From positions 1-64,000 of IMG/VR virus record IMGVR_UViG_3300000271_000006: a stretch of DNA of 64,000 bases. One strand, 5' to 3'. This stretch comes from a virus. A model generated the notes under the pieces. It was given only the letters and a program-made list of their open reading frames with translations, was not told the origin of the DNA and made no database searches. This document shows positions 1 to 39,644 of this stretch, piece after piece (positions within the stretch are counted from its first letter, which is position 1; each line of letters opens with the position of its first letter). The translations under genes and the position numbers were made by a program.

Positions 1-480
1 GTGGAGTTCCAGCCCCTTGACCCCCTTGGCAATCAGGAGGTCAACGGCCTTGTTTGTGGCGGCGCCCGCCGTGGCTCCGTGGATTTGGGAGGGACGCGAA
101 GCGGAATGGCTGGCCGGCGCTGCGGCTTGGGCAGGCGGAGGAGTCGTTCCCTTGGATTGGTGGTAGACCTCCACGAACTGGAACTGGCCAGACTTGTTGA
201 CGTGAAGCTCTTGGGTTGTCTTCCCGTTGTACTCGTTCAACTTGGTGAACAAGCCCTGCCCGGCGGCATTCGCGTGAATGACAACGGTCTTCCCCTCCAT
301 CTTGGAAATGTCGGAGTGCTTCCAGACCACCAGCTTGATTTCGCCCGATGGGTCGGCAACAATCGCATTCTGGGGGGCACTAGGGTTGTCCTTCTTGGGA
401 TAGACCTTTTTGAGGGTCACGGAAACCTCGTCAACCGGAGATTCGGGCGGGAGGTTTTTTACATCACTGAGTTTCATCAT
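1..480 (-). CDS. OB-fold-like protein, possible ssDNA-binding protein (partial, runs off window start)
   Basis: Own translation of the minus strand from ATG 480 gives MMKLSDVKNLPPESPVDEVSVTLKKVYPKKDNPSAPQNAIVADPSGEIKLVVWKHSDISKMEGKTVVIHANAAGQGLFTKLNEYNGK..., open to nt 1. It is absent from the ORF track because there is no in-window stop. ATGA overlap with the stop of ORF 477..962. Function is guessed from the beta-rich N-domain plus Pro/Ala linker. Confidence 0.4.
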   Translation of the reverse strand, partial: MMKLSDVKNLPPESPVDEVSVTLKKVYPKKDNPSAPQNAIVADPSGEIKLVVWKHSDISKMEGKTVVIHANAAGQGLFTKLNEYNGKTTQELHVNKSGQFQFVEVYHQSKGTTPPPAQAAAPASHSASRPSQIHGATAGAATNKAVDLLIAKGVKGLELH

Positions 481-962
481 GTTGTTTTTGTTTCAGGTTC
501 AGGACTGAAATACTGGATCATACTCATGCTCCGCAAGCCCAAATGTCCAAGCAACGCCTTCTTTGGCTGTTTTTGTGGTCGGGGGCACGCGCAGGTGTTC
601 GTCCTTGGTCGCGATGCCGTAGCTCCGCCCCATTGGGCCGGTGCCTTGGCCGTTGAGTGCGCCGAACTTTCGGAGCGCCACGAGCGCAGCCCCCTTGCCG
701 CGTCGCCCAGCGGCTTTTCGATTGCACCGAACATGAAGACGATCGCATTGAGCGCCTGGGCCTGTGTCTTCGCCGCAACCCGAGGCGCCATGTCCTCGAG
801 CCAGGCGCGCACCCGTTCCTCGTTGGTCGAGTCGCGGTGGTTGCGCGCAACGAAGTCAATGAAGTCACGGGCGCGGGAGCAATATACAAGCTCCGTGTTG
901 TAGCTGAGGTGGCGGGTGCGGCAGACCGCCTGCATTCGGTTGATGATTTCTGACTTTGTCAT
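477..962 (-). CDS. Tyrosine-recombinase N-terminal SAM-like domain protein (IntI/XerD-type N-domain only, no catalytic domain)
   Basis: ORF track 477..992. ATG at 962 gives MTKSEIINRMQAVCRTRHLSYNTELVYCSRARDFIDFVARNHRDSTNEERVRAWLEDMAPRVAAKTQAQALNAIVFMFGAIEKPLGD, which fits the YS.RTE..Y..W...FI.F...E.V..FL..L...V...T..QAL.AL.F.Y pattern of integron-integrase/Xer N-domains. The remaining ~75 aa are low complexity, and no catalytic R..HxxR..Y region appears in any frame downstream. Confidence 0.5.
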   Translation of the reverse strand: MTKSEIINRMQAVCRTRHLSYNTELVYCSRARDFIDFVARNHRDSTNEERVRAWLEDMAPRVAAKTQAQALNAIVFMFGAIEKPLGDAARGLRSWRSESSAHSTAKAPAQWGGATASRPRTNTCACPRPQKQPKKALLGHLGLRSMSMIQYFSPEPETKTT

Positions 963-988: not shown

Positions 989-1336
989 TCACTGGTTAGC
1001 CTTGGCGTGCGTGAGTCGGATAAAGACGATGCTCCCGGCCCCCTCGCCGATGTCCCACTCGTAGTGCCACGGCTCCCACGCTGCGTGCCACCAGTTGCCC
1101 TTGTCGGCCACATCCGCGACGAAGTCCGCGAGCTGATCATCTGGGGCATCACTGAGTCCGTGTAGCCACTGCGCCTCGGCCCAGAATCGTGCGACCTCGT
1201 CGCCCTTGATTTGCTCCGTCTTGTAGGACTCGCTGTCCGCGACGACAGCCAGGAGATCTAAACCGGCTAACCATGCGTCCACAGCCAACGCCGGGGATTG
1301 TCCGGCCGGCGATTGAGTTTCACTTTTCATCTCCAT
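989..1336 (-). CDS. hypothetical protein (accessory cassette ORF)
   Basis: ORF track, 115 aa. The ATG lies in the loop of structured repeat 1265..1395. The N-terminus MEMKSETQSPAGQSPALAVDAWLAG follows the leader pattern imposed by the repeat. Confidence 0.55.
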   Translation of the reverse strand: MEMKSETQSPAGQSPALAVDAWLAGLDLLAVVADSESYKTEQIKGDEVARFWAEAQWLHGLSDAPDDQLADFVADVADKGNWWHAAWEPWHYEWDIGEGAGSIVFIRLTHAKANQ

Positions 1337-1395
1337 AGAGTGCTGTCTTGAGGTTATTGGTTTTCGCCCGGCGTCGGCTGATACGCGGTGTTCTG
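1265..1395 (-). repeat. attC-like structured inverted repeat (copy 1)
   Basis: Gene-sense reading: CAGAAC-n9-CAGCCGACGCCGGG-[loop with ATG 1336]-CCCGGCGTTGGCTG-n10-GTTAGCC. 14-bp stem including one G.T. Confidence 0.65.
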
Positions 1396-1962
1396 CTGAT
1401 CGAGTTTCGCGAGGATCTGGCGCCCGAGAGCGTGCAGGTCGCTGAAGTATTTTTCGGAGTTGCGCCGCTCGTATTCGCGCTCAAAGACACGGCCGGACCA
1501 CTCTTCCCATCCGCGCGCAGAAATCACTTCGGACATCGCGCGGCAGTCGTCGTCGCTCGCCGGGTCGAACCCGTGTTCGGTGAAGTGGTCCACCTCGGCC
1601 TCGCACCCGTAGTTTGTGAGCGTGTTCGACAGCAGTTTTCCGCAGCCCTCGCAGAACGGCGTAGAGTCGCCCTCGTTACCCCAGCCCCCATCGACCAGCC
1701 ACTCGCCTTCGGGATCGGCCTGCTTGAGCTTCGCGATTTCCTTTTCCGCGCACTCGTAGCAGTAGCTTGTGCTCTCGTCGTGATCGCGATTGCTGCCGCA
1801 TATCCAGTGCTCCGGCGCAGCGGGCACGCGGGCCGCGCCTGCATCGAAGAGTTGCACCAGTCGTGCACGTTCGGCCTCAGACAACGGAGGCAGAACCAAG
1901 TGCCCAGAGCCAACAGGCACCGGCTGTCCGTTTTCGAGATTCATTTCAGTAGAGGAGATCAT
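1354..1962 (-). CDS. Cys-rich hypothetical protein (accessory cassette ORF)
   Basis: ORF track, 202 aa, with CYEC and CEGC pairs. ATGA overlap with 1959..2354. An alternative ATG at 1944 (MNLENG) lies inside the loop of repeat 1891..2004. Confidence 0.6.
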   Translation of the reverse strand: MISSTEMNLENGQPVPVGSGHLVLPPLSEAERARLVQLFDAGAARVPAAPEHWICGSNRDHDESTSYCYECAEKEIAKLKQADPEGEWLVDGGWGNEGDSTPFCEGCGKLLSNTLTNYGCEAEVDHFTEHGFDPASDDDCRAMSEVISARGWEEWSGRVFEREYERRNSEKYFSDLHALGRQILAKLDQQNTAYQPTPGENQ

Positions 1963-2004
1963 TGGATTTTCTGCGGTGCCTGCGGCTCATGCACGGCGTT
2001 CGGG
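1891..2004 (-). repeat. attC-like structured inverted repeat (copy 2)
   Basis: CCGAAC-n9-GAGCCGCAGGCACCG-[loop with ATG 1962/1944]-CGGTGCCTGTTGGCTC-n9-GGTTCTG. 5+9 bp stem. Confidence 0.7.
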
Positions 2005-2354
2005 CAAGAGGGCTCGACCATCTCGCAGGCGACCGCGAGGAGCACGACGGGCGAGTGGCCGTCATCGCTCATCTCCTTTGCCACGGGCAGCACGGTTTTG
2101 AGCACGTTATCAGAGCCCTCGTCTTCCATCAGCGCCTCGATTGCCGGGCGGATTTCACAGACCTTATCAGGCCATTTGTCGCCAAGCAGGCGCTTCACGC
2201 CGTCGCGCGTTTCAATGAGTTTCTCGGAGACACGGAGTGCCCGAACCAGTCCGCCAAAGCCAATTCCGGCCCGCGTGCCCGCGTCCGGCTGCTGCGTGTC
2301 ATGTCCCATATCAGTGTCCTTTCGTTTGGTTGTGATGGGCCGGAATCGGCTCAT
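1959..2354 (-). CDS. hypothetical protein (accessory cassette ORF)
   Basis: ORF track, 131 aa. The ATG at 2354 is part of the conserved GATGAGCC of repeat 2240..2368. An alternative ATG at 2309 (MGHDTQQ) lies in the repeat loop and may be the true start. Confidence 0.5.
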   Translation of the reverse strand: MSRFRPITTKRKDTDMGHDTQQPDAGTRAGIGFGGLVRALRVSEKLIETRDGVKRLLGDKWPDKVCEIRPAIEALMEDEGSDNVLKTVLPVAKEMSDDGHSPVVLLAVACEMVEPSCPNAVHEPQAPQKIQ

Positions 2355-2368
2355 CGGAATTGTTAGGC
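2240..2368 (-). repeat. attC-like structured inverted repeat (copy 3)
   Basis: GCCTAAC (its TAA is the stop of 2363..2692)-AATTCCGAT-GAGCCGATTCCGGCCC-[loop]-GGGCCGGAATTGGCTT-n9-GGTTCGGG. ~15 bp stem. Confidence 0.7.
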
Positions 2369-2692
2369 GCCGGACTCGCGGTTTGGGTCGTCGAGTCTTT
2401 TACGCAGCTCCAAAAGGGCGAAGCGGAGTTGGTTAGCCATGTATTCAGCCGCCGGGTTTTCTCCGTGCATCACCTCTACATCGCGGCTCATCTGCTCAAA
2501 GCGCAGCCACGTTTCTTCGAGGCGCTTGCGATAGCTCTCGGCGATCTTCTCCCAGTCCACAAATGCAGGCGGAACCGGGATGCGAGTCACCATCCCGCAG
2601 TGATAGCAGTCCATGTTTACGATCTGCATGGAGACCTTGGGCACGGTCGGAATAGCCGAGAGTGGATTATCGAATTTGTCGTAGTGTTGCAT
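2363..2692 (-). CDS. hypothetical protein (accessory cassette ORF)
   Basis: ORF track, 109 aa. Its TAA stop lies inside the GCCTAAC box of repeat 2240..2368. Confidence 0.6.
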   Translation of the reverse strand: MQHYDKFDNPLSAIPTVPKVSMQIVNMDCYHCGMVTRIPVPPAFVDWEKIAESYRKRLEETWLRFEQMSRDVEVMHGENPAAEYMANQLRFALLELRKRLDDPNRESGA

Positions 2693-2705
2693 CGTTAAAA
2701 TCGGA

Positions 2706-2773
2706 GCCTAACCAGCGATTACACACAACCTCCGGAGCTTCGCTCCTCCGGTGTGTGACCCGCGGTGTTAGCC
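2706..2773 (-). repeat. attC-like structured inverted repeat (copy 4, short loop)
   Basis: GGCTAAC (its TAA is the stop of 2768..2974)-n9-CACACACCGGAGGAGC-gaa-GCTCCGGAGGTTGTGTG-n9-GTTAGGC. Confidence 0.7.
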
Positions 2774-2974
2774 AAGACCGCGCTTTCGCATCTCTTGGCG
2801 AATCATATATTCGCGGGCTTTCGCTTCACTACCAGAGCATCCCCGCGCAAAGCGTAGAGCGTTTCTCAGGTGCTTCTCCGTGTGCTGCGAATACATATCG
2901 GGCTCGTCCCGAATGGACCGGGCTGCGTCTCGGTCGCGCCAGTCGGCACGTTTATCGTATCGGAATGCGGGCAT
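2768..2974 (-). CDS. hypothetical protein
   Basis: ORF track, 68 aa. The ATG is 7 nt after the GTTAGCC box of repeat 2982..3069, and the TAA stop lies inside the GGCTAAC box of repeat 2706..2773. Confidence 0.5.
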   Translation of the reverse strand: MPAFRYDKRADWRDRDAARSIRDEPDMYSQHTEKHLRNALRFARGCSGSEAKAREYMIRQEMRKRGLG

Positions 2975-2981
2975 AAAAAGA

Positions 2982-3069
2982 GGCTAACAAGTAGATGGAG
3001 CCAAGCCGGATACCTGTCACGGCGAGCGAGAACCGCCGTCCTCCGGCTGGTTCATTATGGTGTTTCGCC
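2982..3069 (-). repeat. attC-like structured inverted repeat (copy 5)
   Basis: GGCGAAAC..-GAACCAGCCGGA-[loop]-TCCGGCTTGGCTC-CATCTACTT-GTTAGCC. One mismatch plus one bulge. It ends 7 nt before ATG 2974. Confidence 0.55.
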
Positions 3070-12719: not shown

Positions 12720-12931
12720 ACCATTGCCCACCTGCTTACAAGGGTTTCGCAGCCGGCCTTAAGGGCAGACGCTTTGTTTTCGCGGGTCGGCCCCCCAATC
12801 AGCACCATACCCACGGGATCGGCCCAAACGGCACTGAAGCCTCCTTTGGTTGAGTCAATGCGAAGCCCAATGCCAAGTTGGGATGCTGCGTAGCAGATGG
12901 TGCCACAGTAGCGGATTGCGTCCTCGTCCAT
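12716..12931 (-). CDS. hypothetical protein
   Basis: ORF track, 71 aa. Its start abuts the shared 54-nt segment 12930..12983. Confidence 0.55.
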   Translation of the reverse strand: MDEDAIRYCGTICYAASQLGIGLRIDSTKGGFSAVWADPVGMVLIGGPTRENKASALKAGCETLVSRWAMV

Positions 12932-12983
12932 TAGTTAAACTTATTCACTACACGTCGGCATATCCGCCTTGTTGGGCGAAGAA
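12930..12983 (-). repeat. 54-nt segment shared (inverted) with 32715..32768
   Basis: Minus reading TTCTTCGCCCAACAAGGCGGATATGCCGACGTGTAGTGAATAAGTTTAACTAAT versus plus-strand TTCTTCGCCGAAGAAGGCGGATATGCCGACGTGCAGTGAATAAGTTTAACTAAT. Three to four mismatches. Confidence 0.85.
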
Positions 12984-13051
12984 GGGCGGGGCGATTCGAG
13001 GATGCCGCGAAGCTGGGCCTGATTTTCGTGTAGGGCTTCAACGCTCATCAT
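12941..13051 (-). CDS. 36-aa ORF ending in KADMPTCSE (last ORF of accessory array A)
   Basis: ORF track 12941..13201. ATG 13051 gives MMSVEALHENQAQLRGILESPRPSSPNKADMPTCSE. The C-terminus is encoded by the 54-nt segment shared with 32715..32768. Confidence 0.35.
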   Translation of the reverse strand: MMSVEALHENQAQLRGILESPRPSSPNKADMPTCSE

Positions 13052-13310
13052 CTGTCCTCCGTTCGGTCGGGCGCGGCTCATGTGCGACGTTGGGCGAAAG
13101 AGCGGCCTTCGCTTTTTCGTAGATGCGCTCCGCTTCGGCGGCGATGCCGTGCTTGTCATCGTCTTCCCAGAACGCACGTTGTGCGATTGCGTCCTCTTCA
13201 AGCGTGTCCAGTGCCGCCGATAGCGCGCTCCGCAGTTGTTCGTTTTCGTGTGTGGAGGTCACTAGCTCAGCACGAAGCCGTCCGACCTCCTCCTTGTAGA
13301 AGTCTTGCAT
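13038..13310 (-). CDS. coiled-coil hypothetical protein (accessory ORF)
   Basis: ORF track 13038..13481. ATG 13310 (MQDFYKEEVGRLRAELV...) shares 1 nt with the stop of 13310..13684. Confidence 0.55.
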   Translation of the reverse strand: MQDFYKEEVGRLRAELVTSTHENEQLRSALSAALDTLEEDAIAQRAFWEDDDKHGIAAEAERIYEKAKAALSPNVAHEPRPTERRTDDER

Positions 13311-13684
13311 CACGACGCAGGCCCTCCCTCGCCACGGTTCACGCGATCCACTTCGTCTTCGACTTCTGGTGGGCATTGCGAGAAGTCCGCGTGCTTCGCC
13401 ACGAGCGCGATCACCCGGCGAAGATCTGCCAGTTGGTGCTCCTGCCATTCGACGGTGAGTTGCTTGTCGCGCTCTCCACACTTGTGAGCAGTCACCTCAC
13501 GCTCCAGCTTTTCGAGCGTATGGATTGCGCGGAATAGCGTGAGCGTTACGGGGTGTTGGTTCGCACGAAATTCGGCAGCCCACTCGCGGAGGTTGTCCAC
13601 GACATAAGGCACGCCCAACAAATCGCCAGAGACCAACGCGGGCCGCTCCACGGCCTGCGGATGTTGTGATGAGTTCGATTGCAT
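13310..13684 (-). CDS. hypothetical protein (accessory ORF)
   Basis: ORF track, 124 aa. The ATG lies in the loop of repeat 13614..13738. Confidence 0.6.
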   Translation of the reverse strand: MQSNSSQHPQAVERPALVSGDLLGVPYVVDNLREWAAEFRANQHPVTLTLFRAIHTLEKLEREVTAHKCGERDKQLTVEWQEHQLADLRRVIALVAKHADFSQCPPEVEDEVDRVNRGEGGPAS

Positions 13685-13738
13685 AGAGTGTTGGATTGAG
13701 TGAGAGCCCGGCCCGCGTGGCTCAGCCTTGGATGTTAT
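13614..13738 (-). repeat. attC-like structured inverted repeat (copy 6)
   Basis: GAGCCACGCGGGCCG-[loop with ATG 13684]-CGGCCCGCGTTGGTCTC-TGGCGATTT-GTTGGGC. 15 bp with two bulges. The stop of 13722..14051 lies at the 5' arm junction. Confidence 0.7.
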
Positions 13739-14051
13739 CTACACGCAGACGTTGCAGTCGCTCGATTTCCGCGACGATCAGAGCGCCCGCCTTCTCCAGA
13801 TTGCGGATCGGGTCGTCACTCGGCTTCCACCACGCATCGGCCCACGGCCAGACGCGCACCTTGTGCGTGACGTTGGGGCGCTTTCCATCGATCACATGTG
13901 GGTTGTCGAAGCCGCAAGCGGCGAGCGCGTAGATTGCGGCAGCCCCGGCCATTTCACCGAGCTTGTGGTTGTCGTCGTGAGAGGGCGTCCAGCCCTTCAC
14001 GGAGATTTGCCGCGCGCGTTCGGCGGCGATTAGTTCGAGTGCGTTTTTCAT
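13722..14051 (-). CDS. hypothetical protein (accessory ORF)
   Basis: ORF track 13722..14069. ATG 14051 gives MKNALELIAAERARQISVKGWTPSHDDNHKLGEMAGAAAIYA... It starts 10 nt after repeat 14062..14163. Confidence 0.65.
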   Translation of the reverse strand: MKNALELIAAERARQISVKGWTPSHDDNHKLGEMAGAAAIYALAACGFDNPHVIDGKRPNVTHKVRVWPWADAWWKPSDDPIRNLEKAGALIVAEIERLQRLRVDNIQG

Positions 14052-14061
14052 ACAAAAGAAA

Positions 14062-14163
14062 GATAACAAATTACTAGAGCGAACCCGGTTGACTGTTGCA
14101 GTTTGCGCTAGGCACGGCCACGGGCGCTCGATTCTGGCCGGGTTCGCTCAGTATGGTGTTCGG
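14062..14163 (-). repeat. attC-like structured inverted repeat (copy 7)
   Basis: CCGAAC-n8-GAGCGAACCCGG-[49-nt loop with the stop of 14108..14464]-CCGGGTTCGCTC-TAGTAATTT-GTTATC. Perfect 12-bp stem. Confidence 0.7.
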
Positions 14164-14464
14164 CCGAGGTGTCCGGCTTCTTGAGTTCCCAGTAGTAGCA
14201 AGCGCCGTGGGTGTTGAGGTTTTCGAGTGCGGCTGCGTAGAGAGGCGCGACATGTTTGCGCACGGCTTCGAGGATCGGCTCCCTGGCGTCAGCCTCGATC
14301 TCGTATTGCTCTTTGGCCACGTAGCCTTTTCGCGGCATGAAGTTGTCGGCGGTCCATCGCCACTTCGGAGATTCCTCGTCGGGTTCAGTGAGGAAGCTGT
14401 TCACCGGGATGTTTGCATCATCGGCGCCGGCGATTTCGATTGTGCCTTTGTCTTCGTAGTTCAT
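14108..14464 (-). CDS. hypothetical protein (accessory ORF)
   Basis: ORF track, 118 aa. It starts 28 nt after GTTAGGC of repeat 14493..14583, and its stop lies in the loop of repeat 14062..14163. Confidence 0.6.
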   Translation of the reverse strand: MNYEDKGTIEIAGADDANIPVNSFLTEPDEESPKWRWTADNFMPRKGYVAKEQYEIEADAREPILEAVRKHVAPLYAAALENLNTHGACYYWELKKPDTSAEHHTERTRPESSARGRA

Positions 14465-14492
14465 TTGGATTTCGTGAGGTTCTTTTTCGGAG

Positions 14493-14583
14493 GCCTAACC
14501 AGGCGAGACACCCAATTCGCATAGCTCACCGGTCCGGCGAGCTAGCATCAGGGGCTGCGAATTGGGTGCTCTTGTTGTTAGGC
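14493..14583 (-). repeat. attC-like structured inverted repeat (copy 8, canonical core boxes)
   Basis: GCCTAAC-AACAAGA-GCACCCAATTCGC-[34 nt]-GCGAATTGGGTG-TCTCGCCTG-GTTAGGC. 12-bp perfect stem. The boxes fit RYYYAAC / GTTRRRY exactly. Confidence 0.8.
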
Positions 14584-14916
14584 AAGACGCAGTTCATCGG
14601 ACGCAATTTCGACGGCGCGGGGGCAGTCCGCGAAGTCCACGATTGCCTTTAGCGCCTGCCGTGCGCTCTCCAGCTTTGCGGCCATTTTCTGGCACTCCTC
14701 TATCGGGTCGCCGGGCGCGACCGGAGCTGGCACGTGAAGCTCGGCGGCATTGCAGCGGTTGATTACCTCCTGCATCATCGCTTTCGCGTGCTTGCTGTCG
14801 CAGTCGTCGGTATCGACCTCGATTCGCAGATCCTGCCAGCCATCGTTTTGCTCAGCGACCACGAAGGCGCGCTTACCGTCGCCCGATTTACCGTCCCATT
14901 TTAGTGTTACATTCAT
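14578..14916 (-). CDS. hypothetical protein (accessory ORF)
   Basis: ORF track, 112 aa. It starts 30 nt after GTTAGGC of repeat 14947..15002, and its TAA stop is inside GCCTAAC of repeat 14493..14583. Confidence 0.6.
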   Translation of the reverse strand: MNVTLKWDGKSGDGKRAFVVAEQNDGWQDLRIEVDTDDCDSKHAKAMMQEVINRCNAAELHVPAPVAPGDPIEECQKMAAKLESARQALKAIVDFADCPRAVEIASDELRLA

Positions 14917-14946
14917 TGTGTTTTCGTGAGGTTAAAATTCGCTCCA

Positions 14947-15002
14947 GCCTAACCAGCGCATGGAGCCAATTCGCTTCGCTCATGGCTCATGGCATTGTTC
15001 GC
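14947..15002 (-). repeat. attC-like structured inverted repeat (copy 9, short)
   Basis: GCGAAC-AATGCCAT-GAGCCA-[14 nt]-TGGCTC-CATGCGCTG-GTTAGGC. Near-identical twin at 37211..37265. Confidence 0.6.
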
Positions 15003-15188
15003 TTGTGTATGACGCTCAATCTTAGCGCGCGCAGACTCAAGATTGCGGATGGCCTCGTCAATCCAAGCCATGGATTCGTTCCATTGCCCATCTTTCCATT
15101 CCTCTTCGGCCATAAACACATCGGCTCGGGCTCCTCCGAGATTTAGGTAGGCGGATTCTATACATGGAATAGGTTCGTTCATCGGCAA
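14949..15188 (-). CDS. hypothetical protein (first early-left ORF)
   Basis: ORF track, 79 aa. The C-terminus is encoded by repeat 14947..15002. Confidence 0.55.
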   Translation of the reverse strand: MPMNEPIPCIESAYLNLGGARADVFMAEEEWKDGQWNESMAWIDEAIRNLESARAKIERHTQANNAMSHERSELAPCAG

Positions 15189-15295
15189 ATGGGGCTGTTG
15201 GGGTCACGCTTGGGAGGGGCGTTGCGGCGGTTGTGTTTTGCAAGCTGGGCAACCCGACCTCGGGGCTTTTCGTCTTCCTCTTCAATCCAATTACG

Positions 15296-16451: not shown

Positions 16452-16528
16452 CCCCCCCCAGTTTGGCGCGAGCGGCTGTCATGGGCCAATCTTCACCTCG
16501 TTCCGGCTGGGGGGGGCTCTTTTTTTTT
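16452..16528 (+). terminator. leader hairpin C8...G8 followed by T9, ending at the initiator ATG
   Basis: CCCCCCCC (16452..16459), 49 nt, GGGGGGGG (16509..16516), CTC, then TTTTTTTTT (16520..16528), then ATG 16529. Confidence 0.45.
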
Positions 16529-19454: not shown

Positions 19455-21365
19455 ATGGAGATCAAGGAAGCAGCCAAGATACGGGACTACATCGTCAAGG
19501 GCGAATGGGTGATGGCGGCAAACTTCACCCTAAGCCTCATGGGGAAGGACCCCATCGTTGAAACTAAGGATGATGCCTTGGTGGTTCTGCGCGGCCTGCT
19601 TCAGCACCTCCTTGACAGCGAACTTTATCTCCACGCCGGAACGCTTCTTTGGGGTCCGGAAATGTTTTGCGCGGAACCCAAGTTTGTTCAAGACGTCTTC
19701 CGCATCCTTCACTCCGAGGCAAAGATACTCATTCAGGGGGCCGCGTCAACGGGCAAGTCGTATAATGCAGGTGTTTGGATGTACCTTGATTGGAGGCGCG
19801 ACCCAGAATACACGTCAATCAAGTGCATTGGTACGTCAGAGGATCAGGTGCGAAAGCATGTATTTGCCCACTTGGTAAAGCTCCACAGGGCAGCATGTAT
19901 CCCCATGGAGGAGGAGGTCATTATCCGCGACTCGGATATGTGGCTCGGGGTCAAGGGGGCTGGATTCGAGTTTGGCATTACGTCAATCGCCTACAAGCAG
20001 TCACAGGAAACGTCGGGCGCGGTTAAGGGATACAAGTCCATGCCGGTCCGCACCCATCCCCACCCAAAGTTTGGGCTTTTTAGCCGCCTTCGCCTACTTG
20101 CTGACGAGGCTCAAAATATTCCCGGCGGCCCATTCCAAGACCTTAACTCATGGGTCAGTCAAATTGATGGAACTGAATTTGTTAAGATCGCGCTCGCGTA
20201 CAACCCCGAGGACGTAACGCGCACGGTTGTAACAATGGCCGAACCTGAACAGGGCTGGGGCATTGAAGACTTGGATAAGCTCTACGAGTGGAAGTCCAAA
20301 GCCGGTTGGAATGTGCTTAGGCTTGATGCCGCAAAGTCAGAAAACGTCATAGCCAAGCGCAAGATTTACCACGGCATTCAGTCCTATGAAGGCTTCATGG
20401 GATATATCCTTGCCGGCGGAGATACTTCGGCTTCGTATATGTGCTTTGGTCGAGGATTTCCGCCAACCAAGGGCGTCAGCAACACAATCATCCCCATGAG
20501 CTGGCCACAAGAAGCGCGTGGCGAAGCAATCTTCATCGGCGTCCCAGAGAACGTAGCCGCCGTTGACTTGGCATTCATGGGCATGGATAGCGCCCAAATG
20601 GCCGTTGGGCGATGGGGTCTCGCGTCCGGCTACCGCGTAGAAGCACCCAATACCCTAGAGGGATATAAGGTGGTGAACTTTACAAGCCGTCTCAATATCT
20701 CCAAAAAAGAACCCCGTCACGTCTTGCAGCTTGACCAAGTGATACCAATGGAAAAGCATGACGACACGGTAATGATGGCCGAAGAGATCATGGGCCGGTG
20801 CAACATGCTTGGCATCAAGCCAGAATGGGTTGGTGTGGATTGCACGGGAATCGGTCTCGGAACCCACTCTCACCTCAACAAAGTTTGGGGCGATGTTATG
20901 GGCATAGCTTGGAATACGATGGCGTCGGAAAAGAAGATTCTAGCCGAAGACAAGCAGAATGCCCGCGAGACGTGCGACGGAGTAATGAGCGAAATGTGGT
21001 ACGCGTTTCGGCGCTGGCTTGACCCGCGAGTCAAAGCGGTTCTAATAAACCCCATCATCCCGCAAACCCCGCTCAATAGCCAGCTAACCACCCGCCGCTA
21101 TAGCACCGGTAAAAACGGGATCAAGGTTGAGTCAAAGGAGCAATACAAGGCCCGCAACCAGCGATCGCCAGACGAGGCGGATTGCGCAATCATGCTTTGC
21201 CATGTGGTGCGGATGCGGGCGGAAGTAACCCCTGGGCTTGTCGAGGAAACCAAGCCCAGCCACAATACCGTACAAAGAGATGAAGGAACTGGCTTTACTC
21301 CCGTAACCAAGCGGGAATCAGTTGACGCAGAGGACTCAATCTGCAAGGATGGGGTTGATGGCTAA
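19455..21365 (+). CDS. terL: terminase large subunit
   Basis: ORF track, 636 aa. Walker A-like LIQGAASTGKSYNAG, Walker B-like LRLLADEAQNIP, and a C-terminal nuclease-like VDCTGIGLG. AAGGAG is 6 nt upstream of the ATG. Confidence 0.85.
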   Translation: MEIKEAAKIRDYIVKGEWVMAANFTLSLMGKDPIVETKDDALVVLRGLLQHLLDSELYLHAGTLLWGPEMFCAEPKFVQDVFRILHSEAKILIQGAASTGKSYNAGVWMYLDWRRDPEYTSIKCIGTSEDQVRKHVFAHLVKLHRAACIPMEEEVIIRDSDMWLGVKGAGFEFGITSIAYKQSQETSGAVKGYKSMPVRTHPHPKFGLFSRLRLLADEAQNIPGGPFQDLNSWVSQIDGTEFVKIALAYNPEDVTRTVVTMAEPEQGWGIEDLDKLYEWKSKAGWNVLRLDAAKSENVIAKRKIYHGIQSYEGFMGYILAGGDTSASYMCFGRGFPPTKGVSNTIIPMSWPQEARGEAIFIGVPENVAAVDLAFMGMDSAQMAVGRWGLASGYRVEAPNTLEGYKVVNFTSRLNISKKEPRHVLQLDQVIPMEKHDDTVMMAEEIMGRCNMLGIKPEWVGVDCTGIGLGTHSHLNKVWGDVMGIAWNTMASEKKILAEDKQNARETCDGVMSEMWYAFRRWLDPRVKAVLINPIIPQTPLNSQLTTRRYSTGKNGIKVESKEQYKARNQRSPDEADCAIMLCHVVRMRAEVTPGLVEETKPSHNTVQRDEGTGFTPVTKRESVDAEDSICKDGVDG

Positions 21366-21473
21366 CTCCTGAGATGAGCCACGAGCCCGCAGAAAACTCT
21401 ATGGAAACGACAACTCAAAAACCACCCGAAAACGTACCGGCTGCGAGCGTTGGCTCTGGACGGCTGGTTCGGC
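21361..21473 (+). repeat. attC-like structured inverted repeat (copy 10)
   Basis: GCTAAC (its TAA is the terminase stop)-TCCTGAGAT-GAGCCACGAGCCCGCAG-[loop with ATG 21401]-CTGCGAGCGTTGGCTC-n10-GTTCGGC. Confidence 0.65.
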
Positions 21474-21742
21474 TCCGTCTTTTTTTGGCGCACGGGACGG
21501 CCGGTGCGCTCGGCTTCATGCCCCACCAAAGGACAGGCGTGAAGGACACAGCGAAAAACCTGATATGGCTCCCCAAGCAGGCGGTGAACATAGTGCGTCA
21601 ATCCCCGGCCAAGGCGTGGACATGGCGGGAAACAGATTTGGAGATATGTTCAATCTTCGCTCGCAGGAAGGGGCTGCTGCCCTACGCCTTGCCGAACGGT
21701 CGGGATGAGCCGCGAGCACAGCGCGAAAACAAAAACACATGA
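21401..21742 (+). CDS. hypothetical protein (accessory ORF)
   Basis: ORF track 21374..21742. The in-frame ATG 21401 (METTTQKPPENVPAASVGSGRLV...) lies in the loop of repeat 21361..21473, as in the paralogous leaders. The sequence is of low plausibility. Confidence 0.4.
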   Translation: METTTQKPPENVPAASVGSGRLVRLRLFLAHGTAGALGFMPHQRTGVKDTAKNLIWLPKQAVNIVRQSPAKAWTWRETDLEICSIFARRKGLLPYALPNGRDEPRAQRENKNT

Positions 21743-21809
21743 GCACTCACGCAAATGAATCGAGCACCAAGGGGCCGCTGTGCTCGTTGGCTCTGGCACA
21801 TGGTTCGGC
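21691..21809 (+). repeat. attC-like structured inverted repeat (copy 11)
   Basis: GCCGAAC-GGTCGGGAT-GAGCCGCGAGCACAGCG-[loop with ATG 21739]-CGCTGTGCTCGTTGGCTC-TGGCACATG-GTTCGGC. 5+11 bp stem, and the outer boxes are perfectly complementary. Confidence 0.8.
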
Positions 21810-32243: not shown

Positions 32244-32284
32244 GGCGAACATCCGGGATTAGGGACGCGCCGGTACTGCCTCCC

Positions 32285-32394
32285 CCGAACTCCTGAGATG
32301 AGCCACACGGCGCGAAAACTTTATGGAAACTCAAACTAAAAAAACCACCGGAGAAGGACAGACCGCCGTGTTGCGCTCTGGCGATTTGTTCGGC
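32285..32394 (+). repeat. attC-like structured inverted repeat (copy 12)
   Basis: CCGAAC-TCCTGAGAT-GAGCCACACGGCG-[loop with ATG 32323]-CGCCGTGTTGCGCTC-TGGCGATTT-GTTCGGC. 13 bp with two bulges, and the outer boxes are complementary. Confidence 0.75.
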
Positions 32395-36720: not shown

Positions 36721-36870
36721 ATGAATACTACGAATCGACTCGGGCCACACGCACCCGAAACACAGAAGGTGCTCGACGCCGGGCTGCACGAGCGAGCGGC
36801 TGATCTGCCGCCTGAGTTGGCACAATGGCGCGATGCTGCTCCCGACAGCCCGTTTCCGCCGAACTCCTAA
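36721..36870 (+). CDS. 49-aa ORF (accessory array D, d1)
   Basis: ORF track 36670..36870. ATG 36721 comes directly after the upstream stop. Its TAA stop lies in the spacer of repeat 36859..36957. Confidence 0.35.
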   Translation: MNTTNRLGPHAPETQKVLDAGLHERAADLPPELAQWRDAAPDSPFPPNS

Positions 36871-36957
36871 GATGTGCAAGATGCACCAACTCTATCACTC
36901 TATAAAAAACACTAAAAACGTCCGCTGGTGCATCTTGGCACTGGCGATTTGTTCGGC
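36859..36957 (+). repeat. attC-like structured inverted repeat (copy 13)
   Basis: CCGAAC-TCCTAAGAT-GTGCAAGATGCACCA-[37-nt loop, no ATG]-TGGTGCATCTTGGCAC-TGGCGATTT-GTTCGGC. 15 bp with one bulge. Confidence 0.75.
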
Positions 36958-37138
36958 CTTCTGCGCGTCCGGCTGTATGGATTCACGCACGCTAGCCAAA
37001 GATGCGCCAGAAGTTCTGCAAACCATCGAACTGCAAGGCTGTGAATACTTCTTCACGGAGTTCAGTGCCCGCCAATCCAACAACTATGCGGTGGCGATCA
37101 ACGCCTCGGCCGAGGCGGAGGGGGAAGTGTTTGGGTGA
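36872..37138 (+). CDS. putative secreted protein or lipoprotein (d2)
   Basis: ORF track 36833..37138. MCKMHQLYHSIKNTKNVRWCILALAICSAFCASGCMD has a signal peptide with an imperfect lipobox (ASGC). The signal peptide is encoded by the 3' arm of repeat 36859..36957. Confidence 0.5.
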   Translation: MCKMHQLYHSIKNTKNVRWCILALAICSAFCASGCMDSRTLAKDAPEVLQTIELQGCEYFFTEFSARQSNNYAVAINASAEAEGEVFG

Positions 37139-37210
37139 ACCATGCGGAAGAGGCGTCTCTCATGGTCCAGAATTTCTGTCAGCCAACCGAAAATCAAAAA
37201 TCCAATACAA

Positions 37211-37265
37211 TGAACAATGCCATGAGCCATGAGCGAAGCGAATTGGCTCCATGAGCTGGTTGGAC
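37211..37265 (+). repeat. attC-like structured inverted repeat (copy 14, short)
   Basis: GAACAATGCCAT-GAGCCA-[14 nt]-TGGCTC-CATGAGCTG-GTTGGAC. An alternative upstream 5' arm CAGCCAAC-CGAAAA lies at 37180. Confidence 0.55.
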
Positions 37266-37594
37266 TCCGTAATAACTTTTTAAATACAATGAAAGCATCC
37301 GATTACAAAATGACCGTGAATCAGCGCATCGAGGTCGAGCATCTGACCGAAAGGGCGCAGGACGATCTAGAGTCCACGCTAGCTCGCCTGGTGTGCCAGC
37401 GCGACCTAGCAATAGAGGGCGCAACCAAGCAAAAGGCCGAATCCGACGATCAGGCCCAATGGGCCAAGGATGCCAGCGCACGAATGAACCGCATGGAAGA
37501 CGCCATCCGCGCGGTGCTGGCGGTCAATATACCGCTGCCGTCTGGACTCGGGGCGCAACTCTGCAACGCCATCGAATACAACGAAAAACCATGA
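37229..37594 (+). CDS. hypothetical protein (d3)
   Basis: ORF track, 121 aa. An alternative in-frame ATG at 37289 (MKASDYK) lies 23 nt after the GTTGGAC box. Confidence 0.5.
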   Translation: MSEANWLHELVGLRNNFLNTMKASDYKMTVNQRIEVEHLTERAQDDLESTLARLVCQRDLAIEGATKQKAESDDQAQWAKDASARMNRMEDAIRAVLAVNIPLPSGLGAQLCNAIEYNEKP

Positions 37595-37986
37595 ACCGAG
37601 AAATCTTTAATCTCTTCGCAGACAACAAACCGCTTCCGAAAAATGCCATGCTCCGAGGCGAACCGATTTCGCGCATCGCACTTGAAAGCGCGAACAAAGT
37701 CCCGAACCACATGAGCGAACACGTTCCGTTCTGGGTGCTCGGTTGGCGTGACCTGCATGATGACCTTACGATCCGCTCAGAAGCTGTCTGCTACGGCGGG
37801 CCGTGGGACGGTCGCGAAGTCATCGACGCGGGCGAATACAAGGCCGAGAAACTCGACCGCCAAACGGGGCTGATCCACGTCTATGAGCGCAGCGCACGCG
37901 GCTTTGACTACCGGGGCACGCAGCTTTTCGGCTCTCTGTCCAACAATAAGCTGACCGGCGCGGGCAGCAGCCCGCGTTCGGTCTAA
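37591..37986 (+). CDS. hypothetical protein (d4)
   Basis: ORF track 37393..37986. ATG 37591 makes an ATGA overlap (MNREIFNLFADNKPLPKN...). Confidence 0.55.
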   Translation: MNREIFNLFADNKPLPKNAMLRGEPISRIALESANKVPNHMSEHVPFWVLGWRDLHDDLTIRSEAVCYGGPWDGREVIDAGEYKAEKLDRQTGLIHVYERSARGFDYRGTQLFGSLSNNKLTGAGSSPRSV

Positions 37987-38006
37987 CGCCTTGTTCGCCA
38001 ATTTTT

Positions 38007-38333
38007 ATGAACACCGAAGGACCTCGAAAATTCACTATTCCGCGGCGCTCCGTAACCGAATGCGGAGCCTGCAAGTATCACGTCTGTCATAGCTCTTTCC
38101 ACACCCGTAGCGGATCGGGCGGGTGGCGCGATTATGCCTGCTCGCATCCCGACGCATTCAAAGACGAATCGCTTGTCGGCGTGGCACCGGAAGAAAACGC
38201 GGCGCTCGTGGCGCACATCGCCGCGATTGAGAAGCAGAGCTACGGGGGCCGGCTGATTGGTCGCACCGAAGCGACGCCCAACTGGTGCCCATATTTGGCG
38301 AACACCAAGGTGAGCCACACGGCCGGGAAATAA
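38007..38333 (+). CDS. Cys-rich hypothetical protein (d5)
   Basis: ORF track, 108 aa. Its stop lies in the loop of repeat 38297..38418. Confidence 0.5.
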   Translation: MNTEGPRKFTIPRRSVTECGACKYHVCHSSFHTRSGSGGWRDYACSHPDAFKDESLVGVAPEENAALVAHIAAIEKQSYGGRLIGRTEATPNWCPYLANTKVSHTAGK

Positions 38334-38418
38334 CTCTATGAGCAATACAACCGAACAGAAAACCCCTGATGCGAGTAGCGCGGCCAATGGCCGTGTTGGC
38401 TCTAGCGATTTGTTAGCC
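38297..38418 (+). repeat. attC-like structured inverted repeat (copy 15)
   Basis: GGCGAAC-n8-GAGCCACACGGCC-[loop with the stop of d5 and ATG 38338]-GGCCGTGTTGGCTC-TAGCGATTT-GTTAGCC. 13 bp with one bulge. Confidence 0.75.
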
Positions 38419-38553
38419 GCTTTGGGCGGAAGCATGTGTGTAAGCGGCGAAGTGCTGACCGGGCAGCGCGCACTCGACTACATCGAAACAATGCACCCGG
38501 TGGACCGCGGATCACTCGTGGAAGACCTGCGCAGCCTCGAAATGCTCAAATAA
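38338..38553 (+). CDS. hypothetical protein (d6)
   Basis: ORF track, 71 aa. The ATG lies in the loop of repeat 38297..38418. Confidence 0.5.
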   Translation: MSNTTEQKTPDASSAANGRVGSSDLLAALGGSMCVSGEVLTGQRALDYIETMHPVDRGSLVEDLRSLEMLK

Positions 38554-38554
38554 T

Positions 38555-38755
38555 ATGGACTTCTCTGGAATGCCCGGACCGGGCGCTTTCTTCTTCGTCG
38601 CGGCCCTCGTGTGCTCGCTTCTCGCAACTCTCGTCGGCGTGGCCCTAAAGCTCGGCGGCGTGCTCTTGCTCTCGTGGTGGTGGGTGCTTTCGCCGCTGCC
38701 TATTCTGCTCGTGCTGGCGGTAATCGTGGCCGGCCTCGGAGCTTTGTTCGGCTAA
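38555..38755 (+). CDS. two-TM membrane protein (d7)
   Basis: ORF track, 66 aa, strongly hydrophobic. It ends in ...GALFG, encoded by a degenerate GTTCGGC box. Confidence 0.5.
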   Translation: MDFSGMPGPGAFFFVAALVCSLLATLVGVALKLGGVLLLSWWWVLSPLPILLVLAVIVAGLGALFG

Positions 38756-38779
38756 CGACCAAGGTCAGACACGCTCGCC

Positions 38780-39088
38780 ATGAAGAATAATAAAATCCCC
38801 GCGCGTAGAACCAGCTCCCGAAAACGGACGGCTGGCGAGCGTTGTTCTGTAGCGACTGGTTCTCATGCCGTGCGCAAACGGCGGGACTCCTTCGACATCG
38901 GCCAAGCCGCGAGGATCAAGGGACTCAAGCGGATCGATAACCCCTACGAAGGCTTTTCGTATTCGTGGTATGGGTGGGACGCCGGATGGTCTGTCGAAGA
39001 CCAGAATCTCGGGCATGAGAACGCTGAGGTCTCGCACAGAGACCGGGAGCGCCAGCCCGATGCCGATCAACCACCCAAGCAACCCTAA
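38780..39088 (+). CDS. ribosome-modulation-factor (Rmf)-like domain protein (d8)
   Basis: ORF track, 102 aa. FDIGQAARIKGLKRIDNPYEGFSYSWYGWDAGWS fits the G..A...G......NPY.....W..GW pattern of Rmf-like proteins. Confidence 0.45.
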   Translation: MKNNKIPARRTSSRKRTAGERCSVATGSHAVRKRRDSFDIGQAARIKGLKRIDNPYEGFSYSWYGWDAGWSVEDQNLGHENAEVSHRDRERQPDADQPPKQP

Positions 39089-39136
39089 AACTCAACTACA
39101 AGGCGGGTCTCTGTTGCGAGCACCGTTTTGTTCTGC
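39017..39136 (+). repeat. attC-like structured inverted repeat (copy 16)
   Basis: GAGAAC-n8-CTCGCACAGAGACC-[loop with the stop of d8]-GGTCTCTGTTGCGAG-CACCGTTTT-GTTCTGC. 14 bp with one bulge. The arm sequence co-varies relative to other copies. Confidence 0.7.
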
Positions 39137-39168
39137 CTCTTGAAAATCTCCGACAACACCAAGAAACC

Positions 39169-39444
39169 ATGAAAATAAAACAGATTATCGACCGCACGAA
39201 AACCGAATATGAATATTCCGATCCCCACGGATCAGCAACCACAACGCTCGCCGCGCTGAACCTGCTCGCGGAAATCGAGAGGTGGCTATCTGAGGGTGCC
39301 ACGCTAAAGGCCACGAATGCCGATGGATTCGGATTCGAGATATTGGAAGATGGTTCCGTGCGATCTGAAATGACGATCACCGGGGCTAAGGCAGGCGTCA
39401 TCTTGTACCGGCAGAACGTTCCCGATGAGCCACGCGGAAAATGA
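39169..39444 (+). CDS. hypothetical protein (d9)
   Basis: ORF track, 91 aa. It starts 32 nt after repeat 39017..39136. Confidence 0.5.
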   Translation: MKIKQIIDRTKTEYEYSDPHGSATTTLAALNLLAEIERWLSEGATLKATNADGFGFEILEDGSVRSEMTITGAKAGVILYRQNVPDEPRGK

Positions 39445-39500
39445 AGCCTGAACAACACAAGCAGCCGTCGCCCGCGTTGCGCTCTGGCGGGTGGTTGGGG
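39412..39500 (+). repeat. attC-like structured inverted repeat (copy 17)
   Basis: CAGAAC-GTTCCCGAT-GAGCCACGCGG-[loop with ATG 39441]-CCGCGTTGCGCTC-TGGCGGGTG-GTTGGGG. Confidence 0.65.
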
Positions 39501-39641
39501 GCGCCCTCGGCAATCGTCTGCGTGAAGATCGAAGACGACGGCCTTCCTCCGTGCCCTCTCTGCGGAGGACCACTAAAAGACGACTGGCACGGCGTCGCCG
39601 CATGCTTCTGCAACTTCGGCGGGCAACCGCCACGAATTTAA
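39441..39641 (+). CDS. small zinc-ribbon-like protein (d10)
   Basis: ORF track, 66 aa, with CPLC...C.C. The ATG lies in the loop of repeat 39412..39500. Confidence 0.45.
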   Translation: MKPEQHKQPSPALRSGGWLGAPSAIVCVKIEDDGLPPCPLCGGPLKDDWHGVAACFCNFGGQPPRI

Positions 39642-39644
39642 GCC

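Follow-up and report, generated by a model that had tools for sequence, protein, structure and literature searches.

To our knowledge, integron parts have so far been reported in phages only in the form of pieces captured from host integrons or of attC clusters with two to four sites. In a canonical attC site, a 5 x 6 loop precedes the L box, a 3-bp stem with an extrahelical base (G). Integron integrases favor the bottom strand of such a site and cut it between the A and C of its box, equivalent to G|TT on the top strand. Other phage hairpins invite comparison as well: the RNase III processing hairpins of T7 are long, contain an internal loop, and lie between early genes on the transcribed strand. 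The PeSL elements of T4-type phages, on which Arbiol et al. are said to have reported in 2010, reportedly combine a stem-loop with a sigma-70 early promoter and take part in homologous recombination. Both integrons and clusters of attC sites without an integrase (CALINs) are known in phage genomes, the published virulent-phage clusters having two to four sites, and published phage attC sites have been recombined by IntI1 (Qi et al., 2023, Front Microbiol, PMC9892861).

The stretch analyzed here (positions 1 to 64,000 of virus record IMGVR_UViG_3300000271_000006; “the window,” 64,000 nt) carries a family of at least 19 hairpins in five clusters, each lying on the coding strand of its local genes and spanning a gene junction (Table 1). 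The clusters are found on both genome arms, including within replication and structural gene blocks. Given this number of attC-like hairpins at small-gene junctions, together with an adjoining truncated integrase gene, the phage probably exchanges accessory genes in the form of integron-style cassettes, with the genes facing opposite to the normal direction. The explanation preferred here, with moderate confidence, is a phage-borne integron-like system for which the hairpins serve as structure-specific recombination sites of the attC type. An earlier note on this DNA had proposed tandem integron cassettes for one cluster, Array A; this reading is largely right, with corrections as to orientation (hairpin, then ORF), the integrase (truncated), and scores in a model of known attC sites (weak).

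Table 1. Junction hairpins, leaders, and associated genes in the window. R2 is the covariance model described in the text.
Feature	Position	Strand	Remarks
Truncated integron-integrase gene	477..962	-	161-aa ORF, IntI-like in residues 1-88 only (N-terminal)
Five junction hairpins beside truncated intI	1265..3069	-	1265-1396, 1890-2004, 2239-2368, 2706-2773, 2982-3069
Small cassette-like ORFs of Array A	13038..15182	-	14949-15182, 14578-14916, 14108-14464, 13722-14051, 13310-13684, 13038-13310
E5 junction hairpin	13613..13740	-	R2 44.5 bits
C3 junction hairpin	14061..14164	-	R2 46.4 bits; RNA z -4.9
Leader AACCTCACGAAA	14470..14481	-	between E1 3' box and ATG of ORF 14108-14464
E1 junction hairpin	14493..14583	-	R2 47.9 bits on coding strand, 18.7 antisense
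Leader AACCTCACGAAA	14922..14933	-	between copy A 3' box and ATG of ORF 14578-14916
Copy A junction hairpin, short loop	14947..15003	-	R2 37.1 bits (training copy)
Two junction hairpins	21360..21809	+	21360-21473 (R2 35.3 bits), 21691-21809 (R2 52.6 bits)
Junction hairpin around start of ORF 32323-32757	32284..32394	+	R2 57.8 bits
Seven confident junction hairpins and one marginal	36858..39751	+	R2 24-60 bits
Confident members of this cluster	36858-36957, 37209-37265, 37938-37999, 38297-38418, 38750-38865, 39411-39500, 39644-39751	+	
Marginal member of this cluster	39016-39136	+	R2 16.4 bits, E 0.023

Array A has four sites in 1.4 kb and no integrase within 12 kb. With at least two close sites and no complete intI nearby it would be a CALIN, but only if its sites count as attC; it is one of five clusters rather than a stand-alone array, and lacks a complete integrase. 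The hairpin first described, E1, does read GCCTAAC-aacaaga-GCACCCAATTCGC-[34 nt]-GCGAATTGGGTG-tctcgcctg-GTTAGGC, with both boxes an exact match to the integron consensus RYYYAAC / GTTRRRY; its layout is GCCTAAC, 8 nt, a 13-bp stem with an inner 10-bp stem, 9 nt, and GTTAGGC. C3 is laid out as GCCGAAC, 8 nt, GAGCGAACCCGG ... CCGGGTTCGCTC, TAGTAATTT, and GTTATCT. Gene ends are interwoven with all four: copy A sits within the 3' end of ORF 14949-15182, the TAG stop of which falls in GTTAGGC; ORF 14578-14916 ends, as the earlier note observed, at the TAA inside GCCTAAC; the C3 loop contains the stop of ORF 14108-14464; and in E5 the TGA stop of ORF 13722-14051 is within TGAGCC, while the loop holds the ATG of ORF 13310-13684. 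The next ATGs were likewise correctly placed 28 and 30 nt past GTTAGGC, behind a common leader, AACCTCACGAAA, which occurs exactly twice in the window. By inspection, the genes have no Shine-Dalgarno sequences.

The GCCTAAC/GTTAGGC 7-mer is found in the window at chance frequency (6 occurrences, 6.2 expected), so the boxes by themselves prove nothing. A covariance model (R2) was built from seven phage hairpin copies, among them all four from Array A. It recovers these four training copies, in agreement with the number proposed, and adds 12 non-training copies in the window (E 1e-11 to 5e-4). The alignment of the 19 copies was fitted to the model, which favors structure somewhat; in it, AAC and GTT are invariant (19/19), the remaining four box positions are paired in only 42-68% of copies, and pairing extends to 85% of cells overall and 93% in the inner stem. 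Compensatory changes are present at nine of the ten inner-stem pairs, and covariation scores 0.38; shuffles give 0.12, none of 500 attaining the observed value, and sliding the partners gives 0.01-0.10. No match at gathering score to Rfam 15 was found in the whole window.

Element lengths range from 57 to 132 nt, within the ~57-141 nt expected of attC. On the coding strand, a 7-nt box ending in AAC is followed by 8-10 unpaired nt and an inner stem, usually starting GAGCC; after the loop come the return arm, ~9 unpaired nt, and a 7-nt box beginning with GTT. The loop is 13 nt in the two shortest copies and tens of nt in others, and is filled by unrelated sequence, gene starts and N-terminal codons among it. 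The 3' arm usually carries a bulged T, seen in four of the seven copies examined in detail and left unpaired in the family alignment. A 3-bp stem with a one-base bulge is specific to E1; most copies have instead an internal loop of ~9 x 9 nt, which differs from canonical attC and so counts against the integron reading. Folding counts against it as well: of the copies spelled out in the earlier note, E1 alone has an exceptional fold (DNA -30.9 kcal/mol, z -6.7; RNA z -6.1), most copies are no more stable than shuffled sequence (copy A, as 15002..14947, has z ~0), and both DNA strands fold equally well, without the strand asymmetry typical of attC.

Neither the reading frame nor the placing of starts and stops is constant with respect to the boxes, which are therefore not a coding motif; the alternative named in the earlier note, a protein-coding motif in one fixed frame, does not apply. 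The hairpins could still act in mRNA at polycistronic junctions, through processing, stability, or termination-reinitiation coupling, their attC likeness and the integrase remnant being historical or coincidental. In favor of this, every copy is on the coding strand; G-T wobbles are commoner than A-C mismatches, at 11 vs. 5 in all and 7 vs. 1 within the inner stem; stop and start codons are found within the hairpin or beside it; a conserved A-rich leader comes after some copies; and the genes, as noted, lack Shine-Dalgarno sequences. However, the position of the start codon is not fixed (14-60 nt into the element, or 12-30 nt past it), and cutting both arms would detach many start codons from their ORFs. 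Bottom-strand DNA folding predicts the strand specificity equally, no Rfam family matches, and the invariant AAC/GTT at attC positions, the cross-matches to attC, and the linkage to intI in two otherwise unrelated genomes (both below) would be left unexplained; a role confined to mRNA is considered rather unlikely.

R2, although built from phage copies only, matches the bottom strand of genuine class 1 attC sites at 33-34 bits (E ~1e-7): catB3 at 34.0, aadA1 at 33.3, and aadA2 at 33.0 bits, with a gcu cassette at 23.7 bits and blaIMP-45 and qnrVC6 also matched (range 17-34). It gave no non-attC matches in five integron loci (59 kb, part of a 122-kb search set), and, of the three attC sites in phage TJE1 that have been validated by experiment (PMC9892861), it matches two. 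The search with an attC model suggested earlier therefore gave a divided answer, since R1, an attC covariance model derived from class 1 integrons, scores the window sites only weakly (8-17 bits, E 0.06-10), compared to 14-32 bits for held-out genuine attC and 20-36 bits for the TJE1 sites. These low scores, with 9-16 bits in a second phage-like contig (L025, below), are a point against the integron reading. R1 matched six phage copies, on the antisense strand every time (E1, for example, at 12.3 bits, vs. 8.2 on the coding strand). The likeness can also be seen by eye: the antisense of 38297-38418 is GGCTAACAAATCGCTAGAGCC, and attC_aadA1 is GTCTAACAATTCGTTCAAGCC.

In sequence, in the bulged T of the 3' arm, and in the orientation of intI, the coding strand resembles the bottom strand of attC. 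Each hairpin therefore most likely goes with the ORF after it, making the units hairpin-then-ORF. Of the tandem cassettes proposed earlier, the attC likeness, the arrays of cassette-like ORFs, and the link to integron machinery hold up; the order of ORF followed by attC does not, the coding strand being bottom-strand-like. Crossover would correspondingly be expected in the first box, at AA|C, instead of in the coding-strand GTTAGGC box at G|TT, the boundary that the earlier note proposed to check. If the coding strand is the bottom strand, the bulged T is the right kind of asymmetry. In five copies, the stop of the upstream ORF is a TAA within the first box, directly before the predicted AA|C cut; in the pair at 21360..21809, the TAA of a conserved 636-aa gene falls inside the first 5' box. 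Upstream ORFs often extend up to 54 nt beyond the predicted cut (70 nt for the marginal copy), and the starts of downstream ORFs fall within the loop. Cassette shuffling would therefore alter protein termini; this overlap, and the reversal of all cassette ORFs relative to the canonical arrangement, also weigh against the integron reading.

The hairpins at 1265..3069 (R2 22-37.7 bits, no training copies among them) adjoin the integrase remnant. This ORF, 477-962(-), matches PF13495 in Pfam (E 1.1e-14) and just two NCBIfam models, both for integron integrases (TIGR02249, 1e-10; NF011946, 2.5e-5); its best PDB match, 2A3V (IntI4), is weak (E 0.065). It is 60% identical to the N-terminus of a full IntI-like gene in L025, an otherwise unrelated contig that has nothing else in common with the window. 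There, seven family hairpins lie directly upstream of the full integron-integrase gene. The assembly shows one frameshift in this gene, whose two halves match TIGR02249 at 141 and 182 bits; the catalytic motifs are present, as is the IntI-specific insertion LERKYP...WPWFWVF...RRHH. A complete intI is thus found next to the array in L025, and not in the window, but the layout is alike (array, one ORF, intI), and in both the intI coding strand bears the bottom-strand-like sequence, as in class 1 integrons. Neither an attI nor a Pc was identified; the lack of an attI and the truncation of the integrase count against the integron reading.

Comparison with a close relative (L020), otherwise syntenic and with 68-82% nucleotide identity outside variable regions, shows turnover in gene content in three hairpin-bearing regions: 12492-15227, 21175-22019, and 32095-32834. 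The whole of the first, Array A, is replaced in L020 by unrelated small ORFs, likewise hairpin-bearing; the equivalent of 21360..21809 has hairpins at 8476-8536 and 8918-9047 with different ORFs; and the block of hairpin and ORF at 32284..32394 is missing. A gene of the ORF112 family is hairpin-flanked both in the window and in an unrelated contig, L007. The array is thus hypervariable between close relatives, in support of the integron reading. The indel at 32244-32821 is not flanked by two boxes; this, and the fact that no recombination product (circle, empty site, or alternative junction) was observed, are further points against the integron reading.

Small ORFs bordered by repeated elements in hypervariable regions could also be exchanged without any site-specific recombinase, with the hairpins as portable regulatory linkers aiding homologous recombination between phages, as for the PeSL. 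The AACCTCACGAAA leader also follows a hairpin in L025 (4196-4206), hairpin and leader traveling as one composite there and in the window, and copy A has a near-twin at 37209-37265, with 42 identical nt, sufficient for homologous exchange. On the other hand, a minus-strand scan found neither a sigma-70-type promoter nor an intrinsic terminator at the Array A hairpins (the host may use another promoter type), each copy has its own covarying stem, for which a homology linker would have no need, and neither the integron-integrase link nor the attC similarity is explained; linkers of this kind seem improbable.

The twins, bounded by GAAC...GTT, are on opposite genome arms with unrelated flanks, and have a hairpin in common but no ORF, which counts against the integron reading. 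Two near-identical box-to-box copies might instead be small non-autonomous mobile elements (MITE- or REP-like), moved between junctions by a hairpin-recognizing single-strand transposase; the family is found in otherwise unrelated contigs too, and the end hairpins of IS200/IS605 likewise have a bulged T in the stem. The unrelated loop sequence with its gene starts and N-terminal codons, however, implies more than simple insertion for most copies. Target duplications were not observed, the Y1/HUH transposase family is absent from a Pfam scan of 69 ORFs, and a search for the exact core pattern in one genome per species gave no real copies, leaving transposition a very improbable explanation.

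If the hairpins are integron-type sites, the coding strand, as the attC bottom strand, would fold once single-stranded, and an integron integrase would recombine the folded site within the first box, at AA|C. Each mobile unit would consist of a hairpin, an optional leader, and an ORF, and small accessory genes could be excised, inserted, and shuffled at the junctions, with phage promoters reading through the arrays. Single-strandedness might arise on the lagging-strand template, or on the non-template strand during transcription. Since the integrase gene is reduced to the N-terminal 88 residues, the arrays here would be either relics or reliant on an integrase supplied in trans, by the host or by a co-infecting relative of the L025 type.

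A more far-reaching reading, possible but doubtful as a whole, is that a widespread group of ~70-kb phages runs its own integron “in reverse.” The attC bottom strands would be on the coding strand of both divergent genome arms, a strand that would serve as lagging-strand template were replication to begin in the iteron region near 16.8 kb; the sites would fold during phage replication or transcription; and a phage-encoded IntI would rearrange hairpin-then-ORF cassettes directly within phage operons, the termini of proteins forming part of the recombination sites. The cassettes shuffled in this way would probably be anti-defense or host-takeover genes. In this genome, the surviving N-terminal domain of IntI might further be retained as a hairpin-binding protein.

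With at least 19 junction sites in five clusters and an adjoining integrase remnant, the attC-like sites are part of the genome plan of this phage; a related element in L025 retains a full integrase, and the gene content of these arrays differs between close relatives. Should the sites recombine, phages would possess an integron-style engine for exchanging early and accessory genes, there would be a direct cassette route between phages and bacterial integrons, and attC would tolerate bottom-strand coding sequence and a much larger internal loop. The sites, and an integrase with one frameshift to repair, supply a concrete test set.

Among the known systems closest to these arrays are the phage clusters of Qi et al., which are also attC-type hairpin arrays beside small ORFs, mostly without a complete integrase; the arrays here differ in having at least 19 sites in five clusters on both arms, a truncated intI, and ORF ends embedded in the sites. 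In TJE1, moreover, the coding strand is the top strand, whereas all sites here are bottom-strand-like on the coding strand. Class 1 attC sites of the 60-nt aadA/catB type have the same invariant AAC/GTT at the inner ends of a 7-bp outer stem, then an unpaired spacer and a stem with an extrahelical base on one arm; here, however, the internal loop is ~9 x 9 nt, the extrahelical base is a T six pairs into the stem, many of the loops are long, with coding sequence in them, and R1 scores are low. As in a canonical integron platform, intI is at the end of an array, on the strand with bottom-strand sequence and upstream of the array along the top strand, but the cassette ORFs run in the same direction as intI (the reverse of the canonical arrangement), attI and Pc were not identified, and further clusters are far from intI. 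T7 RNase III hairpins are likewise long, with internal loops, between genes on the transcribed strand, but have no enclosed start codons, AAC/GTT boxes, or recombinase link. With the PeSL, finally, the hairpins have in common repeated stem-loop modules bordering small ORFs in hyperplastic regions, and a proposed role in modular shuffling; they differ in that no promoter was found and in being attC-like and linked to an integron integrase.

Array A is a series of small minus-strand ORFs, one after another from 15182 down to 12941 in the window, with hairpins at four of their junctions (15003..14947, here called copy A; 14583..14493; 14164..14061; and 13740..13613). None of these ORFs has a Pfam family, and one of them, 13722-14051, has PHROG matches, to families without an assigned function; an Rfam search of the window gave no family match, and a DNA similarity search against known phages a single trivial one. 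The details on which the earlier note based its reading of tandem integron cassettes are all correct for copy 14583..14493: GCCTAAC and GTTAGGC boxes form its ends, the TAA stop of ORF 14578-14916 (ORF112) sits within GCCTAAC, the next ATG is 28 nt past GTTAGGC (30 nt for the upstream copy), and the leader AACCTCACGAAA has exactly two occurrences in the window. This copy has a perfect 13-bp stem, with a further 10-bp stem inside it in the predicted fold, and it is alone among the Array A copies in folding far better than shuffles (DNA z -6.7, RNA z -6.1). Copy 15002..14947 folds no better than shuffles; the other two junctions have inverted repeats without consensus boxes; and the boxes alone were rejected as evidence, the GCCTAAC 7-mer being at chance frequency in the window. 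Taken item by item, the Array A evidence is thin.

The array start codons follow A-rich leaders without Shine-Dalgarno sequences. Short motifs are shared between array ORFs: ADFSQCPPEVE in ORF 13310-13684 and VDFADCPRAVE in ORF 14578-14916 (13358-13391 and 14608-14641), and AIRNLESARAKI in ORF 14949-15182 and DPIRNLEKAGALI in ORF 13722-14051 (15019-15063 and 13777-13821). From sequence, this suggests sub-gene modules exchanged in the past.

A covariance model (R1) built from ten genuine class 1 attC sites, taken from five plasmid integrons, gives held-out genuine attC sites 14-32 bits; for the three attC sites of phage TJE1 that have been validated by experiment, the scores are 20-36 bits. The attC-model search of the window proposed in the earlier note gave weak R1 matches, at 8-17 bits, but six of them, all antisense to the genes around them, proved to be mutually similar hairpins. 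A second model (R2), trained on seven window hairpin copies, recovers all four Array A junctions at which the element had been reported, and in the window also detects 12 copies outside its training set (E 1e-11 to 5e-4) and one marginal copy. The confident copies form five clusters, one of them a single hairpin.

Hairpin family and integrase remnant (positions in the window)
Feature	Position	Strand	Remarks
Hairpin design		coding	GCCGAAC, 8-10 nt, T-GAGCCA, stem, loop, return stem, T-TGGCTC, ~9 nt, GTTCGGC
Integrase remnant	477-962	-	161-aa ORF; from the gene list of L024
Hairpin cluster	1265-3069	-	five confident R2 copies
Hairpin cluster (Array A)	13613-15003	-	four confident R2 copies
Hairpin cluster	21360-21809	+	two confident R2 copies
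Single hairpin	32284-32394	+	one confident R2 copy
Hairpin cluster	36858-39751	+	seven confident R2 copies

Across the window family AAC and GTT are invariant in the boxes, and the ~9-nt spacer before GTTCGGC is often TRGCGATTT. The inner stem is 93% paired, with compensatory changes at nine of ten pairs, and the covariation score is 0.38, versus 0.12 in shuffles (none of 500 reaches 0.38) and at most 0.10 with partners slid; these counts lean towards structure, because the alignment was fitted to the model. Most copies are no more stable thermodynamically than shuffles, and the strand asymmetry in DNA folding that the earlier note proposed as a check is not there, with sums of -332 kcal/mol for the coding and -342 kcal/mol for the antisense strand. 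An exact-pattern scan of viral contigs for leader plus box gave no match. The exact pattern GCGAATTGG-N9-CTGGTTAGGC was found in one metagenome contig, a weak family member (L011, 19.5 bits), and in one contig from genomes, where the match is in ordinary coding DNA and was discarded as a family copy.

Every hairpin copy in the window spans the junction between two genes. The stop codon of the upstream gene is found 3 to 54 nt inside the hairpin (70 nt in the marginal copy), and in five copies it is a TAA within the first box; the downstream ATG is in the loop, or 12-30 nt past the second box. Three copies have the peptide S-G-D-L-L/F-G in common. A coding motif in one fixed frame, the alternative named in the earlier note, is nevertheless not the explanation, since the copies are read in two different frames and differ in where starts and stops fall. 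A MITE-like element fits less well, because the loops hold gene starts. So does a PeSL-type linker serving homologous recombination: it would not need covarying stems, and a scan for sigma-70-type signals found neither promoter nor intrinsic terminator at the Array A hairpins. It is possible that the hairpins act at the RNA level, as they are on the coding strand in every R2 copy, and G-T wobble pairs outnumber A-C mismatches (11 vs 5). Such a role would, however, leave both the attC similarity and the linkage to intI unexplained, and start codons have no fixed position relative to the hairpins.

That similarity also holds in the opposite direction. R2 contains no integron sequence, and it matches the bottom strands of genuine attC sites, scoring 17-34 bits with E down to 3e-7; two of the TJE1 attC sites are matched as well. 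In five integron loci (59 kb in total), R2 had no match outside attC sites.

A Logan contig (L002) shows no difference from the window in the 10.9 kb compared and extends beyond its left end (L024). The 161-aa integrase remnant matches PF13495 over residues 7-82 (E 1.1e-14) and, in NCBIfam, solely two integron-integrase models, TIGR02249 (1e-10) and NF011946 (2.5e-5). Its best PDB match, weak at E 0.065, is 2A3V, the Vibrio cholerae integron integrase. A plus-strand ORF overlaps the minus-strand ORF 477-992. The integrase similarity ends after residue 88, and no other frame at this locus encodes the catalytic domain; the window gene is therefore truncated. Downstream of it, past the left end of the window (L024 10857-13564), are a 218-aa ORF with weak SSB/RPA OB-fold matches, an RNA ligase and a PD-(D/E)XK nuclease.

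The closest homologue of the remnant (60% identity) is on a phage-like contig, L025, which otherwise has nothing in common with the window. Its integrase gene is read in two frames across one frameshift, with 35% identity to IntI1 for residues 11-188 and 51% for residues 171-328 (E 4e-43). With TIGR02249 its halves reach 141 and 182 bits, and they contain the insertion specific to IntI as well as the HxxR and Y motifs. Seven family hairpins (21-45 bits) immediately precede this gene on the same strand. Three independent results, the attC cross-matches, the integrase remnant and the full integrase of L025, thus point the same way, to a link with integrons.

That the coding strand of the hairpins is the counterpart of the attC bottom strand is indicated by three lines of evidence. 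R2 matches bottom strands, and R1 matches antisense sequence in the window and in L025 alike. The bulged T is on the 3' arm of the coding strand; attC bottom strands have their extrahelical bases on the corresponding arm. Finally, the intI coding strand carries bottom-strand-like sequence, and intI precedes the array along the top strand, an order also found in class 1 integrons. The platform thus has canonical geometry, but with every cassette ORF turned the other way round. The order of ORF and then attC given in the earlier note is not borne out: the unit is most likely hairpin, optional leader, ORF. ORFs starting inside or just past the hairpin fit this unit, as does a composite of 3' arm, box and ACCTCACGAAA leader found in both the window and L025. 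The crossover is predicted to fall at AA|C in the first box; in five copies this point directly follows the upstream TAA.

A close phage relative, L020, has a primase-helicase 86% identical to that of the window and nucleotide identity of 68-82% over most of the region, and is syntenic except at hairpin-bearing spots. In place of Array A (12492-15227) it has ~1 kb of unrelated small ORFs with two hairpins. Different ORFs, again with two hairpins, replace 21175-22019, where in both phages the TAA of the conserved gene upstream falls in the first box. A hairpin and ORF block (32244-32821) is absent from L020, in an indel not cleanly bounded by two boxes. Within the window, copy A and 37209-37265 have 42 identical nt between GAAC and GTT, with unrelated flanks; this repeat probably explains the Logan contig break at 14988.

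Hairpins lie on either side of the conserved 57-aa domain of ORF112 in the window, and likewise in an unrelated IMG/VR contig (L007). Most ORF112 relatives (L003, L004, L005, L009, L010) have no hairpin adjoining the gene, so that the hairpins track phage lineage rather than ORF112. A search of IMG/VR with exact peptides of ORF112, ORF118 and the primase-helicase found no close relatives. The N-terminal 57 residues of ORF112 (MNVTLKWDGKSGDGKRAFVVAEQNDGWQDLRIEVDTDDCD...RCN) belong to a metagenomic protein family that is very conserved and has highly variable C-terminal tails. A ~55-nt module encoding the C-terminal tail ...KADMPTCSE, followed by TAAGTTTAACTAAT, is common to 12941-12995(-) and 32708-32768(+). 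It occupies the 3' ends of two small ORFs, unrelated and on opposite arms, and is a further type of shared cassette end.

Elsewhere in the phage, the primase-helicase gene (22937-25855), which has more than 1,300 metagenome homologues, many of the best on contigs of 65-75 kb, carries a LAGLIDADG intein (about 24051-25136) missing from the L020 homologue. Three copies of the palindrome TGTCCCGCnAGCGGGACA (16752-16824), within an ORF with an HTH_36 domain (16463-17017), are at the divergence point of leftward and rightward genes, and look like replication-origin iterons or operator sites.

With moderate confidence, the hairpins can be taken as recombination sites of the integron kind. No recombination product was seen, and several points tell against this reading: the truncated integrase in the window; the low R1 scores; the equal folding of both DNA strands and unexceptional stability of most copies; and the change in protein termini that shuffling would bring. 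Canonical attC sites also have a smaller internal loop.

Qi et al. (2023; PMC9892861) described integrons in temperate phages; in virulent phages they described attC clusters of 2-4 sites, and they showed these sites to be recombined by IntI1. The window is a case of the same kind, with new features: the number and spread of its sites, the reversed cassette ORFs, sites that contain ORF ends, a distinct attC-like subfamily, and an integrase lineage also present in an otherwise unrelated phage-like contig.
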